DNA from: Octopus vulgaris
Lineage: Eukaryota
Assembly (NCBI GenBank): GCA_951406725.2
Contig: OX597821.1
Coordinates: 34,410,001 to 34,474,000 of the forward strand
Direction: 5' to 3'
Length of the DNA: 64,000 bases
Positions within the stretch are counted from its first letter, which is position 1, and each line of letters starts with the position of its first letter. Shown one piece after another: positions 6,007 to 47,033 of this stretch. Position numbers and translations under genes: made by a program. The notes under the pieces were generated by a model. That model had not been told where the DNA came from, did not search any database, and saw only the letters and a list, made by a program, of their open reading frames with translations.

Positions 6007-6402
6007 TATAATTTCAACAATTGAGGGTAAAATTAATTAATTAATCAATTTCACCAAGTATTCAGTATGCAAAGGGACCATTTAAGGCGAATTCAAATTA
6101 TTACATTATATAAAAGGGCTTAGTAAAATAAATTACTTTGCCGCATACTGAACTCATTAGAAATAGCAGCTAAAAAAACTTTTTAAAACTATTTCCAATA
6201 CTTTAAGTATTGGAAATAGTTTTAAAAAAGTTTTTTTAGCTGCTATTTCTAATGAGTTCAGTATGCGGCAAAGTAATTTATTTTACTAAGCCCTTTTATA
6301 TAATGTAATAATTTGAATTCGCCTTAAATGGTCCCTTTGCATACTGAATACTTGGTGAAATTGATTAATTAATTAATTTTACCCTCAATTGTTGAAATTA
6401 TA
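6007..6402. repeat. Near-perfect palindrome, about 197-bp arms, 1-nt centre at 6204
   Basis: Arms are reverse complements except for one homopolymer indel; the right end runs into (TA)n. Confidence 0.95.
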
Positions 6403-13001: not shown

Positions 13002-13380
13002 ACTCGATTCCGTTGGTCACGAATGACCATGGGTGCACCTAAGAGGTTCCCCTCCGGGGTACAAGTCTGGGTGGAAAGTTGCCTCACTGACAAACGCACA
13101 GCCTAGGGTTGCTTTTATGGAAGACCAGCAGTCGCCCATGCATACCGGCTTCCCCTCTCCACGCCACCGATGTTATCCAAGGGAAAGGCAAAGGCTGATA
13201 TAGCTTGGCACCAGTAACATCACAACTCATTTCTACAGCTGAGTGAACTGGAGCAATGTGAAATAAAGTGTCTTGCTCAAGAACACAACATGCAGCTCGG
13301 TCTGGGAATTGAACTCACAACTTTACGATTGTAAGCTCGATGTTCTAACCACTGAGTCATGCGTCTTCACATATTTTTTC
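13002..13380 (-). mobile_element. tRNA-derived SINE family B3
   Basis: Head GTGAAGACGCATGACTCAGTGGTTAG; flanking direct repeat ATTACATGGGTAACA. Confidence 0.88.
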
Positions 13381-22837: not shown

Positions 22838-23210
22838 ATGATATATATATGTATAAAAAATAGGAAGACGGTAAAGAAAATCCTTAAACACATCTTTAAT
22901 GATTTGTTCCAATTGTTTCTGTTCCAATTCTATTTGCGATGCCTGCCCACGCATTCCAAGGTCACAGAGCAGACCCACCAGCTGGGAGGCGAATACATAT
23001 CCTACTGTATGTGTGTATTCTTTAGTAATGAAGTGTATGTAGATATATATGTATGTATGTGTGTTGAGAATGAAATTTTAGCGATAGATAATGCTTTACC
23101 CTTCCAAATAAGATAGAAGACAAACACACACACACACGAACACGCACACACACACATACACACACACAAACATACACACAAACATACACAAACACACACA
23201 CACACACACA

Positions 23211-23271
23211 CTCACATGTACATATGTTCATATGTATATCACACATAGGTTTATATAAATTCATTCATATA

Positions 23272-23302
<31 letters not shown>

Positions 23303-23487
23303 CACACACATACACACACACTCTCACATGTACATATGTTCATATGTATATCACACATAGGTTTATATAAATTCATTCATATAACACACACACACACTCA
23401 GACACACACAGACACACAGACACACACACTCACGTGCATATGTTCAGATGTATATCACACATAGGTTTATATAAATTCATTCATATA

Positions 23488-23518
<31 letters not shown>

Positions 23519-23588
23519 CACACACACACTCACATGTACATATGTTCATATGTATATCACACATAGGTTTATATAAATTCATTCATAT

Positions 23589-23630
<42 letters not shown>

Positions 23631-23688
23631 CACATGTACATATGTTCATATGTATATCACACATAGGTTTATATAAATTCATTCATAT

Positions 23689-23729
<41 letters not shown>

Positions 23730-23790
23730 GTGCATATGTTCATATGTATATCACACATAGGTTTATATAAATTCATTCATATATAACACA

Positions 23791-23821
<31 letters not shown>

Positions 23822-23880
23822 TCACGTGCATATGTTCATATGTATATCACATAGGTTTATATAAATTCATTCATATATAA
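23211..23880. repeat. Array of seven approximately 62-bp constant units separated by variable (CA)n tracts
   Basis: Unit CTCACATGTACATATGTTCATATGTATATCACACATAGGTTTATATAAATTCATTCATATAA at about 23211, 23323, 23429, 23529, 23629, 23725 and 23821. Confidence 0.95.
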
Positions 23881-23925
23881 CACACACACTCACACACATA
23901 CATGCACACACACACACACATACAT

Positions 23926-23961
<36 letters not shown>

Positions 23962-24607: not shown

Positions 24608-24647
<40 letters not shown>

Positions 24648-24776
24648 AGTGCACATTTATATTTTACAATTTTTATTTATATGTGTGCATGTTTGCGTAT
24701 ACATTGTTTATTAAATTTTTCTATATATCTTTACATTTTAATGTATATGTTGTTTATAAATGAGCACAGAGTAATC

Positions 24777-25257
24777 CTCCATGTGTGTTTGTGTCTTCAT
24801 GTGTGTTTGTGTGTCTCCATGTGTGTTTGTGTCTCCATGTGTGTTTGTGTGTCTCCATGTGTGTTTGTGTCTCCATGTGTGTTGGTGTGTCTCCATGTGT
24901 GTTTGTGTGTCCATGTGTGTTTGTGTGTCTCCAAGTGTTTGTGTGTCTCCATGTGTGTTTGTGTGTCTCCATGTGTGTTTGTGTGTCTCCATGTGTGTTT
25001 GTGTCTCCATGTGTGTTTGTATGTCTCCATGTGTGTTTGTGTCTCCATGTGTGTTTGTGTCTCCATGTGTGTTTGTGTCTCCATGTGTGTTTGTGTGTCT
25101 CCATGTGTGTTTGTGTCTCCATGTGTGTTTGTGTGTCTCCATGTGTGTTTGTGTCTCCATGTGTGTTTGTGTGTCTCCATATGTGTTTGTGTCTCCATGT
25201 GTGTTTGTGTGTCTCCATGTGTGCTTGTGTCTCCATGTGTGCTTGTGTCTCCATGTG
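24777..25257. repeat. 18/20-bp minisatellite CTCCATGTGTGTTTGTGT(GT)
   Basis: Roughly 25 tandem units. Confidence 0.95.
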
Positions 25258-25295
25258 AGTGTCTGTATCTCTCTCTCTCTCACTCTATCTATCTG

Positions 25296-25334
<39 letters not shown>

Positions 25335-26174
25335 CAATATATGTATATGTGTGTATATATATGTGTGTGTGTATGTATGTAGATATGTATGTGTGTGTGT
25401 ATACTTACATAAACACACATACATATAAATTTATTCATATATATATATATATATACACACACAATAAAATATCTGGATGTACAAATAGGAACTAGAGCAA
25501 GATAAATATATGCATGGCAAAAATGAAGAAAATATACCCGATTCTCCTGCAAAAGTATTGTCATGCACAGTGTGTGTATGTGTATGTTTGTGTGTGCATC
25601 ATCATCATTCTCTTCATCATCTTATATATATATATATATACATACAAACATACATACACACACATATTTATATATGTGTATATATACATTTACATATCTA
25701 CACTCACACACACACGTATATATATATATATATATATATACATATGCAGGATCCAATACCTCTACTCCTACATTCCTTAATCTCTATGAAGCAAATTCTT
25801 TTATAGAGCTGGGTTTTTTTCTTTTCTTTTCCCCTCCCACTGTTTACAGGTGTATTTTGCTTTTGTTGTTCTGATTGTTTCCATTTTTCTCTCCTCTTCT
25901 GCTCAATGCCACCGTTGTAACGTTCTCAAATGGATTCCATCTTTTATTGTAAGCTTTTCCAATCTACAATCTAATAAGATTGCAGAAAATCTGCATCGGT
26001 TGAGTATTACTTGAAAGAAAATGGAACTACTTAGGTCACCTGCTATTAAAAATCAAGTGTACTTGTGTGTGTGTGTATAAGCATGGCCACTGTCCAGTGG
26101 CTGAAATGAGTAAGAGGGAAAAAGAGAATAATGTGTATGGGTGTATAAAAAGTGTATGTGTATATATGAGGTGA

Positions 26175-27134: not shown

Positions 27135-28769
27135 GGTATTAGGAAGGGGTTGCATAAGAATGTGAGGGGAGAGTAACAGATGGTCAGAGAGTAGGGCAGA
27201 GGAGGATGTATTGAATGCTGTGAAAAAAAGGAGGAGCAGTTGGGATGAAATTTATCAGTGAGTAAGGTGAGGGAGAGATAGCAGTTGCTCAAGGAGGACG
27301 ATAGATCATAAGGTGGAAGGTTGATGTGTAAGATATAGGAGCACAGTGAAGGTGATGTGAGGGTAGCTCAGGGTGTGTATAGTGGGTGGGTATGATAGTA
27401 GATGTGAAAGTGCATTGAAAATAATAGCAGGCATGCAAGAGGATAAGATGGAGTACGGTGGAAGGAGAGAGCTATCTGGAAACACATGAAGGCAGTGTCT
27501 GGTGTTAATAGTGTGGGAGAACAAGGGAGGTTAAGAATAAGGGATGGGAAGTTCCGAGGTGAAGAATACATACATACATACATCTGTCTCTTTCCATTCC
27601 AACACAGTCACTCCTGACCCATCTTTTATAATGTGAAAAGCTGTGTAGTTCCCCTACTGCAAGAAGAAACTCATTCTGTTCTGGCCCCTTCTCTTACATT
27701 TTAACCTCTCTTCTCGTAGTGTAAAGCTGCCTCCTTCTCTTCTCAGAAAAAGGGGATCTTAGTCTTACAGGCTGTATAGTGAGCTCTCTTGTGCTGGTGT
27801 CACATAAAAAGCACTTAGTACATGCTATAAAGTGGTTGGCATTAGGAAGGGCATTCAGCAGTAGAAACGATGCCAGAGCAGACACTGGGGCAAGGTGCAG
27901 TCTTTGGAAATGCTGGATCCTGTCAAACCATGTAACCTTTGTCAGCATGGGATATGGATGTTAAGTGATGATGATGATGATGATATATGTATATGCATTA
28001 AAAAATATTTAATTTTAGTTCTGTATATTTAAGCATTTCTTTAATACCGTTATTGTTGCGGTGCTGGTTTGTGTAATATTTGTGGTTAACCTGTTTAAGA
28101 TGACTAAGTTCAATGATCTGTCAGCCAACCATTTTGTAATAGACAGATTGAAAGACTGATCTATTTTAAGAACACACACACACACATGCACATGTTTGAA
28201 GGTGCATACACATATGCACGCACAAATGCACACACATGTATGAAAGCACACATACATACATGCACACACACCACACACAGATACACACACACACACTTTT
28301 CTGGGTTTAAGCAAGTTTCAGACATTTTCTTGTATAGAATTTTGTATAGAATTTTATGATTACTCATTCTTTATATATCACAGAAAAATATTTCCTTCTT
28401 GTTCAGTGAAGAAGCATAGTTGGTTTCTTCTCCACTAATGGTTTAATATTGGTTGTAAATCTATTGTTATTGTTGCCTAGCTCCAGGTCAGTAATTATTG
28501 GGCAGACCTACAATGAATGACATTCTAACCATGATCATCCCACCAATTTTCTGACATAATATATCTATATATATGTCATAATATTCTGACATAGTATATC
28601 TGACATAATATATCTAGGATTACATTATACAATGTAGGGTTCTTTTTTAAGACAAAGGACCAAGATACCTGGCTCCTGGCTGTACTCAAGAAGACCTGTA
28701 CTCTGTAGAAGTATTAAGACTGTGCTTGCAGGTGGTGTAAAGTACTTATGATGGTGTTACAAAAAAGCA

Positions 28770-29035
28770 CCTGTGCAGTGCCACGTAAAAATGCCCATGT
28801 GGTGCTATGTAAAAGTGTCCATGTGGTACCATGTAAAAGTGTCCATGTGGTGCCGTGTAAAAGTGTCCATGTGGTGCCATGTAAAAGCGCCCATGTGGTG
28901 CCACATAAAAGTGTCCATGTGGTGCTATGTAAAAGTGTCCATGTGGTGCCGTGTAAAAGCGCCCATGTGGTGCCACGTAAAAGTGCCCATGTGGTGCTAT
29001 GTAAAAGTGTCCATGTGGTACCATGTAAAAGCACC
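28770..29035 (+). repeat. 24-bp tandem repeat (about 11 units) inside a family D element (28740-29205)
   Basis: Unit AAAAGTGTCCATGTGGTGCCATGT, followed directly by the D-family tail. Confidence 0.92.
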
Positions 29036-29173
29036 CAGCACATTCTGTAAAGTGCTTGGTCTTAGGAAAGGCATTTAGCTGTAGAAACCATGCCAAATCA
29101 GACTAGAGTCTGGTGCAGCTCCTCATCTCGCCAGCTCTGGTCAAACTGTCCAACCCATGCCAATGGACATTAA

Positions 29174-32463: not shown

Positions 32464-32470
<7 letters not shown>

Positions 32471-32505
32471 CACAGACCTTTGAAAATTTGTTCTCTTTAT
32501 CTTGG

Positions 32506-32543
<38 letters not shown>

Positions 32544-32585
32544 CCAAGATAAAGAGAACAAATTTTCAAAGGTCTGTGTTCATAT
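32464..32585. repeat. Perfect palindrome centred on a (TA)n tract
   Basis: ATATGAACACAGACC...CTTGGCTT (TA)n AAGCCAAG...GGTCTGTGTTCATAT. Confidence 0.95.
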
Positions 32586-33039: not shown

Positions 33040-33077
<38 letters not shown>

Positions 33078-33078
<1 letters not shown>

Positions 33079-33435
33079 CAATTAAGGACAACTTCTTAAT
33101 AAGGACAACTTCTTATTCCGAAAAAAACTTTTCTTCCCCGAAATGCAATTCGTAAAAGTCTGCCATTTACCGGATGTAATATATGTAAACTCACCCATGT
33201 GCTTCGTTGATGTTGATCAGTTAGCTGCTCGGCTCAGACGAGGTAGGGTCATTTATTTATGATACGTCCAGACTTGCTGATGAATACAGAGGTATGAAAT
33301 CACAGGTGATACAAGTCTATATTTTTAAATGTCTTACTTTGAAAAATTGCATTCGGTGGGATTAGTAAAATTTTTGGTAGTAATGACTAATTTTGTCCCT
33401 CTTAGCGTGTGGCATGTATGTATAATAATGCCCTC

Positions 33436-33437
<2 letters not shown>
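33078..33437 (+). mobile_element. About 360-bp non-coding ribozyme-bearing element embedded in (TA)n
   Basis: Unique sequence with (TA)n on both sides, a canonical hammerhead inside, ending GCCCTC(TA)n. Confidence 0.65.
33270..33318 (+). ncRNA. Canonical type I hammerhead ribozyme
   Basis: agacttg-CTGATGA-atac[agag]gtat-GAAA-tcac[ag]gtga-TA-caagtct; all core nucleotides and three perfect stems; predicted cleavage after A33311 (AUA). Confidence 0.9.
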
Positions 33438-33486
<49 letters not shown>

Positions 33487-36813: not shown

Positions 36814-37374
36814 CCATTAGGATATGATTTGAGGGAGATTAGGCTGCTATTGTTTCTGCAGAACACATTATCACGTGGAAGCTCTCTTTTGAGTTGATCC
36901 TTTTGCCTGCTTAAAATGACCATATCAAGAGAATCGATTATCCAGATTAATAAGGTTTCCATACCAAACACCTTCAATATTTCTAGTTCCAAGTTTTCTT
37001 ACTTGTGTATCTTTTGTGGGATGGGGGATACTGCCTTAGTTGTATAGAAAATCTTTGATAAATTATCGGTTTTGGGTTAAAGGACAAATGTTGTTGTTAT
37101 TGTAAGGGCAGTGGATTGGCAAAATTTTTAGAACACTTGACAAATACCTTGCAGTATTTGTTTCAGATCTTCATATTGGGAGTTCAAATCCTACCGAGGT
37201 CACCTTTGCCTTTCATCCATTCAAGGCTGATAAAATAAAGTACCAGTTGACCACTGATGCTGATTTCAGTGTCTACTAATCTCTCCTCTGAGATTTGTGG
37301 TACTCAATCACTATTAGAAATTGTTATTAACATTGTTATCATTATTATACTAAAAAGTGAAGGTAAAGGTAAAC

Positions 37375-37707
37375 ACTCCCTTTAGTCAGAAATGACCATG
37401 GGATTGCACTTAGAAATTTCCTCTCTGAGGCACAAACCAGGGCAAGGTTGTTTATGGAAGACCAGCTGTCGCCTGTGCATACCAGCCTCCCTTCTCCGTG
37501 CTACCGATGTTATCCAAGGGAAAGGCATAGGCTGATACAGCTTGGCACCGGTGACGTCGCAACTCATTTCTACAGCTGAGTGATCTGGAACAACATGAAA
37601 TAAAGTGTTTTGCTCAAAAACAAAACACACAGCCTGGTTTCGGAATCGAACTCACAACCTCATGATTGTGAGCCTGATGCTCTAACCACTGAGCCATGTG
37701 CCTTCAT
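37375..37707 (-). mobile_element. SINE family B3
   Basis: Head TGAAGGCACATGGCTCAGTGGTTAGAG on the minus strand. Confidence 0.88.
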
Positions 37708-38051
37708 ATTATTATAATAGTCATATATGTATCATACTTAATGTATATATGTATATGTATCATTGGCAAGCATGTTACATTGGTTTTCATCTGTGATAAA
37801 ATTTCTTACAGACATGCTGTGCTTAAAAAACACAATATATATCAGGACACAAAATTATCTTCCTGGTAGTGGCTCGTGCAGACCACCAGATGTATTTCAG
37901 TCTCGTTGAGTCTTGTCAGCATCATGATCTCACAGCCAGCCACACACTTAGATGAGATATGTCACCTCTGATATAAAAAACATTGAATAATACACTCACT
38001 TGTATTGTGAATAGCAGCTAGGCTGAATAGATAATCCAGTATACACAATAT

Positions 38052-38393
38052 GTGAAGGTGCATGGCTCAGTGGTTAGAGTGCCAGGCTTACAATCACGAG
38101 GTAGCGAGTTTAATTCTAGGACTGGGCTGTGTGTTGTATTCTTGAACAAGACACTTTATTTCATGTTGCTCTAGTTCACTCAGCTATAGAAATGAGTTGC
38201 AACGTTACTGGTGCCAAGCTATATAAGCGTTTGCCTTTCCCTTGGATAACATTAGTGGCGTGGAGACGGGAGACTTGTATGCATGGACCACTGTTGGTCT
38301 TCCATAAACAACCTTACCTGGACTTGTGCCTCGAAGGGGAACTTTCTAGGTGCAATCCCTTGGTTATTCATGACCAAAGTGGGTCTTTACCCT
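38052..38393 (+). mobile_element. SINE family B3
   Basis: Head GTGAAGGTGCATGGCTCAGTGGTTAGAG; inverted relative to 37375-37707. Confidence 0.88.
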
Positions 38394-38540
38394 TAGTCTT
38401 TTCTACCCAATTGAAGCAGTATTAAATTGAAATAGTCAGTTGTTTTATGCGAGTTTTTACTGTGCAACTAACTACACTTCTATGATACTGAGGTGTGTGC
38501 AGTATTGCCTTGTGGGAATGTGAAATTCTGTTGGTATACT

Positions 38541-45904: not shown

Positions 45905-46912
45905 AGCATCATCATCATCATCATCATCATTGTTTAACTTCCGCTTTCCATGCTGGTATGGGTTGGACAGTTTGACCGAGGACTGGTGAGCCAGATGGCT
46001 GCACCTGGCTCCAATCTGATCTGGTAGAGTTTCTACAGTTGGATGCCCTTCCTAACGCCAACCACTCTGAGAGTGTAGTGGGTGCTTTTTACGTGCCACT
46101 GTCACAAGGGCCAATCAGGTGGTACTGGCAACTGCCACACTCAAATGGTGTTTTTATGTGCCATCTTCCCAGTTAGCCTTCCTTTTGATATTGCTGCACC
46201 TCTTATGTGTCCATAGCTTACACTAGGTACATATAGAGTTTCTACCTACGCCTTTTCTACAGATCAAGCAGGGCCATCTACCTGAAGGGATTTGGGGTTT
46301 GTCTGCCTTCCTACTTATTAAGACTTTGGTTTTAGCTAGGTTGACTCTGAGGGCCTTCAATTCTGATTCTTGCTTCCACACTTGAAACTTCTCCTCTACT
46401 TCTGATAGTGACTCAGCAATAAGAGCAAGGTCATCAGCATAGAGGAGCTGCCAGGGGCGTCATGTCTTGAATTCCTCTGTTATTGTCTGGAGGACAATGA
46501 TAAATAGGAAGAGGCTGAGGACTGAACCTTGGTGGATCCCTACCTCTAACTGGAATTCTTCACTGTACTCGTTGCCAACCCTCACCTTACTGACAGTGTC
46601 CCTGTACATGGCTTGCACAGCTCTCACTAACCATTCATCTATCCCTAGTTTCCTCATTGACCACTAGATAAGGGATTGGAGGACCCTGTCGAAGGCTTTT
46701 TCCATGTTACCGAAAGCCAAGTACAGGGGTTTATCTGTGGCTAGGTATTTCTCCTGCAGCTGTCTTACCTGAAATATAGCATCAGTGGTGCTTTTCCCTA
46801 GCACAAACCCAAACTGCATCTCGTCTAGACTGACCCTCTCCCTAAATAGTTGGGCTACAACCCTCTCCATAACTTTCATTACCTGATCCAACAGTTTGAT
46901 ACCTCTGTAATT
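45905..46912 (-). pseudogene. RTE-clade LINE reverse transcriptase fragment joined to a family D 3' tail
   Basis: NYRGIKLL, QFGF...STTDAIF, KAFDRV, GIHQGSVLS.FLF, PWQLLYADDL and LRVNLAKTKV motifs with frameshifts; the tail occupies 45905-46163. Confidence 0.92.
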
Positions 46913-47033
46913 GATATTATTTTAAAGAACTGATTTCTGCTGAGTTGAATTCCCCACTTTCTGCTGTGATGTTAACACTAATCATGTAGAAGTTCCCTGA
47001 TATAGTTGGCGCCTTGTGGTGGTGGTGGTGGTG

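Follow-up and report, generated by a model that had tools for sequence, protein, structure and literature searches.

What kind of element carries the hammerhead motif at positions 33270 to 33318 of a 64-kb stretch of Octopus vulgaris DNA (the whole stretch analysed, here called the window), and is this copy likely to cleave? The initial annotation, made from the letters of the window, had described a complete and textbook-perfect type I hammerhead ribozyme, the best candidate for an active self-cleaving RNA, lying alone in a TA-bounded unit with no ORF.

The hammerhead motif and its predicted folding

A type I hammerhead motif was confirmed at 33270-33318 on the plus strand by direct reading and by a descriptor scan. 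The core (C3-U4-G5-A6-N7-G8-A9, G12-A13-A14-A15.1 and U16.1-H17) is complete, and the three helices measure 7, 4 and 4 bp, with helix I open-ended. Hammerhead numbering puts cleavage 3' of A17, and the predicted cleavage site rests on that numbering. The parts of the motif are as follows.

33270-33276/33312-33318, plus strand: stem I, 7 bp
33277-33283, plus strand: hammerhead core strand CUGAUGA, read directly
33284-33287/33292-33295, plus strand: stem II, 4 bp, with loop AGAG
33296-33299, plus strand: hammerhead core GAAA, read directly
33299-33303/33306-33310, plus strand: stem III, around AG
33311-33312, plus strand: predicted cleavage site, 3' of A17 (33311), triplet AUA

With stems I, II and III required to be at least 4, 2 and 2 bp, the descriptor scan found this single match on either strand of the window. 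As a control, 60 windows of 64 kb were generated by a first-order Markov model that keeps the dinucleotide frequencies; on both strands together they contained one loose match (4/2/2), none at 5/3/3 and none at 7/4/4. The complete core and stems I and II of the initial annotation stand. The motif shares its catalytic core and topology with Rfam Hammerhead_1 and other models, yet the Rfam hammerhead models did not report it at the gathering score or at E values up to 10; Rfam-based annotation would therefore miss this copy. For the window as a whole, Rfam returned no match at the gathering score and only microsatellite-driven or weak ones up to E 10. Pattern scans that needed exact matches found none in viral contigs, metagenome contigs or prokaryote genomes, all of them non-animal collections. 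A chance match would account for the silence of the Rfam models and for a bare 71-nt fold that is no stabler than its shuffles (z -0.57). The absence of equal-quality matches from the 60 random windows argues against it, as do a core that is conserved and stems that are kept across the family described below, and we consider the probability of a chance match to be negligible.

The word "textbook-perfect" was nevertheless an overstatement, in view of the AUA triplet, the A10.1-U11.1 pair, the last G of loop II, the 2-nt loop III and the predicted misfolding of the monomer. As for the 5-bp stem III, a 2-nt loop is not credible as a monomer hairpin (ViennaRNA requires at least 3 nt), so that stem III as a monomer amounts to 4 bp plus CAGG. 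The pair 10.1-11.1 is A-U in this motif, and G10.1-C11.1 is termed highly conserved in hammerheads (PMC4209133). Fast hammerheads are described as having a Hoogsteen contact between the last A of loop II and an unpaired U1.7 (PMC11875169). That contact between loop I and loop II is absent from this copy and cannot form as described, because loop II (AGAG) ends in G, without the tertiary A, and U1.7 (33318) is paired with 33270. The AUA triplet occurs naturally; on purified ELVd hammerheads it is reported as the slowest of four triplets, and during transcription as the second best (PMC1636495).

Thermodynamic predictions, in models that leave out Mg2+ and tertiary contacts, favoured a different structure for the single strand. 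The best monomer fold pairs core letters 33277-33282 with 33300-33305 and gives stem III a probability of about 0.01, which leaves the claim of a best candidate for an active RNA unsupported. The hammerhead fold was predicted to lie 2.9 kcal/mol above the best fold for the bare motif, by the same amount above it for the full unit, and 3.5 kcal/mol above it in the context 33255-33335. For the construct 33230-33360 proposed in the initial annotation, among the worst contexts tested, it would cost 6.1 kcal/mol, with a stem I probability of 0.01. For two copies of the bare motif, the best predicted fold was a dimeric hammerhead joining the strands by stems I and III (-26.8 versus -20.6 kcal/mol for two monomers); the dimer was best in two of the six contexts, the two shortest. 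On these models, slow or poor cleavage is predicted for the monomer. We regard this copy as a probable passenger.

A high-copy repeat with a conserved core

The solitude noted in the initial annotation holds for the window, where the unit lies single, with no tandem neighbour and no second copy of itself or of its upstream part within the 64 kb, but it does not hold across sequencing runs. The 361-bp unit was matched by 661 contigs of run X2 and 664 of run X3, under two organism labels (a count that is no copy number), by 70 contigs of run X6 and by three of run X13. These contigs, from four of the 24 runs, were aligned to 33076-33436 at 80% likeness; X2 carries label A and X3 label B, both guessed to be DNA, and X6 and X13 carry label A and are guessed to be RNA. 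Part of 33080-33430 was present in 20 of the 24 listed runs, from 11 studies and six organism labels, with the best run containing 58% of the sampled words; no RNA run is on record among them, which says nothing about expression. The motif thus belongs to a non-coding repeat that is very common in this animal genome. Among the papers listed on hammerheads in octopus and in cephalopods, none described this repeat family; the supplements of the compared papers, which list species and families, may already contain it. For the giant squid genome, 235 Hammerhead_1 loci are annotated (PMC6962438).

Variation among the copies was examined for 40 of the 41 listed variants. None of the 12 listed variant sites within 33270-33318 fell on the 12 invariant core positions (P = 0.013), and in the core only position 7 varied. 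A single contig, X13 record 1, has both T>C at 33274 and A>G at 33314, which turn a U-A pair of stem I into C-G. The first pair of stem II changed from A-U to G-C, by A>G at 33284 and T>C at 33295; summed depths and the distances to the ends indicate that these two changes both lie on X6 records 21 and 23. Loop II is GUAA in other family copies, including X13 record 1, in which loop III is one base shorter. The fold is therefore conserved in other copies, a check that the initial annotation had itself named. Over the whole unit, 22 of the 40 listed variants lay on paired positions, where 16 kept the pair and six broke it against 14.7 breaks expected (P = 0.00025), and rescue by a change in the partner was seen at two sites, alone not significant (P = 0.29); these statistics concern variants that share ancestry, contigs filtered at 80% likeness and a structure derived from this copy. 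The unit is predicted to fold into a long rod with 67% of its letters paired (z -4.13) and more stably on the plus strand (-88.1 kcal/mol) than on the minus strand (-66.6 kcal/mol). Together, the core without variants, the few broken pairs, the stronger plus-strand fold and the z value suggest selection on the RNA.

That RNA appears to be non-coding. The initial annotation had reported no ORF, and although a short frame exists, the longest ATG frame downstream of the ribozyme has 36 codons (33329-33436, open to the 3' end) and no Pfam match. Frame-shifting deletions are common in this region, such as the loss of 4 nt at 33388 (depth 26,543 of 73,389 in run X3), which fits a non-coding unit. 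Viroid-like RNAs carry ribozymes on both strands and pass through no DNA stage. The unit is not of that kind, since the descriptor scan found no hammerhead on its minus strand (other ribozyme classes being checked via Rfam alone) and it is abundant in DNA-like runs.

Two other patterns in the contigs were considered and set aside. RNA editing was rejected as the source of an excess of A>G changes, the same excess being present in DNA-like runs. Contig depth falls over 33232-33309 and rises behind the predicted cut site, and one X13 contig begins at 33318 after TA letters; we do not count these as signs of 5' ends defined by cleavage, because depth is no copy number and the loose ends show the middle of the unit to be more divergent.

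We also asked whether this particular copy might be an active ribozyme used by the host to cut a host transcript at 33311. Its core is intact and natural AUA hammerheads do cleave (PMC1636495). At 33235 and 33251, however, all aligned depth shows another letter than this copy, which appears to have private or species-specific changes there, and the change at 33251 breaks a predicted pair. The monomer is predicted to misfold, Pfam revealed no nearby host gene (exons below 65 codons would escape), and X13 record 1, the longest of the RNA-like contigs, is 21 letters and four gaps away from this copy and so represents another one. A host function for this copy is accordingly very unlikely.

Ends of the element and its surroundings

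The unit occupies 33076-33436 (361 bp) between two TA runs, as the initial annotation had noted, and no target-site duplication is readable at these flanks. Its features are as follows.

33050-33075, no strand: left (TA)n run, likely insertion target
33076-33112, minus strand: 37-nt piece, in opposite orientation in other copies just upstream of 33113; putative 5' inversion
33113-33169, plus strand: 5' arm of the long rod; predicted pairing partner 33326-33383
33172-33269, plus strand: predicted long side hairpin abutting hammerhead stem I; listed variants mostly keep or add pairs
33270-33318, plus strand: type I hammerhead motif, from direct reading, scan and conservation
33326-33383, plus strand: predicted 3' arm of the long rod
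33389-33408, plus strand: stretch whose presumed pairing partner is missing here, judged by eye from the upstream letters of other copies
33411-33436, plus strand: hairpin (33411-15/33428-32) at the 3' terminus, where the element ends and where other copies have a repeated 23-nt unit
33437-33472, no strand: right (TA)n run, read directly

The two arms of the rod were recovered as an inverted self-match of 33123-33169 with 33326-33375 (74%, blastn), and the 3' end of the element lies 125 nt downstream of the predicted cut. At that end, among the loose ends listed (23 of 109), contigs in all four runs diverge after 33426 and reach the same end by way of a repeated 23-nt unit, followed in one X13 contig by TA-rich letters. 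At the other end, eight contigs of X3 and two of X6, among the loose ends listed, depart from the window sequence behind 33111, and none of the 27 pieces listed, out of 1407, crosses 33111/33113. In X13 record 1 the letters before 33113 are the reverse complement of 33076-33100 (24 of 25 by eye, with five letters between), and three X6 contigs have similar reversed letters just before 33113. The departures at 33111 and the reversed upstream letters indicate an element of more than 361 bp. The most fitting reading of this copy is a 5' truncation in which the outermost 37 nt have been inverted.

Other copies extend upstream, with loose ends of 68 and 84 nt, and their farther upstream letters, reversed, are complementary by eye to 33389-33397 and 33403-33408; the rod is thus probably longer in full copies. 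What the window contains is one piece of a larger mobile repeat present in high copy, a point that the earlier reader had overlooked. The joints listed comprised two forward skips and two short back steps near the 3' end. There was no circle junction among them and no tail-to-head joint; since the monomer exceeds the aligned stretch and its head lies outside, such a joint may have escaped.

The surrounding window is AT-rich and full of microsatellites and short interspersed repeats, which we take to resemble cephalopod SINEs, and has no long real ORF. Some 500 bp upstream of the unit, at 32468-32581, a perfect 42-bp inverted repeat (32468-32509/32540-32581) surrounds a TA run and represents a fold-back duplication or an assembly artefact. 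Another inverted repeat adjoins a TA run at 6007-6402 (182-nt arms, 99% complementary, 32 nt apart). An inverted pair at 37364-38395, whose 346-nt arms are 81% complementary and separated by 340 nt, has a related copy near 13114-13375 and probably consists of two opposed copies of an interspersed repeat. About eight tandem units of about 100 bp (family D10), all of which contain a CA run and none a hammerhead, lie at 23161-23940, and minisatellites lie at 28704-29085 (24 bp) and 24643-25458 (18-20 bp); a Pfam Cornifin match on the former is likely due to low complexity. On the minus strand at 46226-46921, 13 kb from the unit, there is a broken reverse-transcriptase remnant with three Pfam RVT_1 matches (best E value 2.2e-7), the only reverse-transcriptase matches among the frames tested; its motifs are presumably those of an RTE-type LINE.

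Retrozymes, Penelope-like elements and the origin of the copy

Non-LTR retrozymes are described as tandemly arranged units, non-coding and 150-450 bp long, that contain canonical type I hammerheads, mostly with a stem III of 1-2 bp, and give self-paired circular RNA (PMC7229834). The unit resembles them in being non-coding, a few hundred bases long, low in GC, highly self-paired and present in many copies, and in having a type I hammerhead of canonical size. Retrozymes are defined by tandem arrays and circular RNA, of which the joints listed for the unit gave no sign; the unit also differs in its longer stem III (4 bp as a monomer, 12 bp as a dimer) and in the 5' truncation and short inversion of this copy. 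Solo monomers are nonetheless reported to be common among retrozyme families (Li, Clavereau and Pollet 2026, 10.64898/2026.07.22.740005), which counts for a solo copy of the retrozyme type. A mussel retrozyme family likewise lacks most of the loop 1-loop 2 contact letters and is reported to cleave slowly; axolotl retrozyme hammerheads are reported to cleave better as dimers (PMC7229834).

Insertions of Penelope-like elements (PLEs) are described as having 5' truncation, an adjacent inverted piece, a tail of 30-40 bp and a bias for (TA)n (Craig et al., 10.1101/2021.04.23.441226). This copy has the (TA)n flanks and appears to have the truncation and the inverted 5' piece, a match that counts for mobilisation by a PLE. 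Further likenesses to PLEs are the optional 3' tail, the palindromic stem III suited to dimers and a 3' terminus that falls within a stem-loop some 0.1 kb beyond the cut, although the tail of the unit is 23 nt rather than 30-40 nt and its inverted piece is internal whereas that of PLEs is a copy of the element end. The geometry described for the anole Poseidon PLE is similar: reverse transcription begins on uncleaved RNA at two stem-loop sites downstream of the hammerhead, 111-118 nt into the ORF, the cut falls 26 nt past the start codon, the tail is 30-40 nt, and the hammerhead required protein for cleavage (PMC11167929). A relation to the Naiad elements, with a SECIS, was dropped; Naiads are described as targeting (TA)n and as being without hammerheads (10.1101/2021.04.23.441226), and Rfam gave no SECIS match. 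Animal PLE hammerheads are mostly of the minimal type with a long helix II (PMC4209133); the unit, unlike these, has a helix II of 4 bp without the extra base. Its canonical helix sizes of 7, 4 and 4 bp, as in retrozymes, therefore count for a retrozyme-type reading. The unit thus resembles both a retrozyme and a PLE end and is not firmly fileable under either.

Starting from what is demonstrated (the motif, its family membership, the conserved core, the TA flanks and the reversed 5' piece), our preferred explanation, held with slightly better than even confidence, is that a non-autonomous element of the retrozyme type inserted here as a solo copy truncated at its 5' end, and that PLE enzymes probably did the copying into the TA microsatellite. 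In its favour counts that two strands of the bare motif fold best as a dimeric hammerhead. Against it count the restriction of that dimer to two of the six contexts, the lack of a tail-to-head joint among those listed and the lack of a PLE protein. None of the 211 window frames (210 stop-to-stop frames of at least 65 codons past the complexity filter, plus the 36-codon frame) matched the GIY-YIG family in Pfam, no reverse-transcriptase or GIY-YIG frame was linked to the unit, and no pseudo-LTR pair was seen around it in the window.

The same observations bear on a second reading, in which an autonomous PLE of the Neptune or Poseidon type, equipped with an endonuclease, left its pseudo-LTR end here as a heavily 5'-truncated copy, and in which the hammerhead would process a long tandem transcript. 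Other copies do run further upstream, an ATG frame is open from 33329 to the 3' end, and no tandem joint is listed; the 125 nt from cut to 3' end are close to the anole PLE geometry (PMC11167929), and most single genomic PLE hammerheads have been interpreted as truncated PLEs (PMC4209133). No coding sequence was seen, however, the 36-codon frame being without a Pfam match and shifted by common indels. The helix sizes are canonical rather than minimal, and the rod seems to close upon itself through pairing of 33389-33408 with the upstream letters. We regard a PLE end as possible but doubtful.

Under the preferred explanation, a non-autonomous retrozyme-type element, source copies would be transcribed on the plus strand into a rod-shaped RNA. 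Two hammerheads would then meet, in tandem or on paired transcripts, with the near-palindromic stem III pairing between them, and cleavage after A17 would free a unit-length RNA that is possibly circularised. A PLE reverse transcriptase/endonuclease may nick (TA)n and begin copying in the 3' hairpin, some 125 nt downstream of the cut, leaving the optional 23-nt tail on the copied element. The template would have spanned the cut site and so have been uncleaved or re-ligated. For this copy, copying may have halted near 33113 and the second target strand may have been primed just upstream, yielding the 37-nt inversion. Twin priming with 5' inversion is known from L1, and since the inverted piece is internal, L1-style twin priming fits equally.

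An inversion of that twin-priming type would also be expected of a SINE-like dispersed hammerhead repeat moved by a LINE, for example an RTE, that recognises the 3' hairpin. The repeat is dispersed and has a fixed 3' end with a hairpin and a repeated tail, and the window contains the RTE-like remnant at 46226-46921. Yet blastn found no 3' end in common with that remnant or with any other repeat of the window, there is no poly(A) tail, and TA targeting and hammerheads are documented for PLEs (10.1101/2021.04.23.441226; PMC4209133), which leaves movement by a LINE improbable.

The unit adds a new member to a known class of elements. Repeats of animal genomes contain thousands of type I hammerheads, with over 6000 motifs in a coral and about 5000 in a mussel (Cervera and de la Pena 2020, PMC7229834), so that one more copy is ordinary. 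The modest value of the finding lies in the family, which is seemingly very abundant, is represented here by a copy that Rfam misses, and joins retrozyme traits (the rod and the canonical helices) with PLE insertion traits (the inversion, the tail and the TA target). It bears on the recent proposal, tested there in vertebrates, that retrozymes are PLE terminal repeats that have become independent; in the same account frog retrozymes are tied to PLE pseudo-LTRs and cleavage was obtained for one of nine elements tested (10.64898/2026.07.22.740005). The role of PLE hammerheads is described as still open (10.1101/2021.04.23.441226; PMC11167929). More speculatively, and at odds we consider low, the copies may belong to an undescribed, Rfam-invisible and very high-copy family of TA-targeting hammerhead retroposons, present in several related animal species, cephalopods to judge by their repeats, as dispersed solos without arrays. 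In such a family the 3' hairpin and the optional 23-nt tail would form a minimal landing pad for a PLE-type reverse transcriptase, and the hammerhead would be off in monomers and on when copies pair via stem III. If such a solo-spreading family exists, PLEs would have in it a natural SINE-like partner, and the purpose of the PLE hammerhead could be tested on a small substrate.
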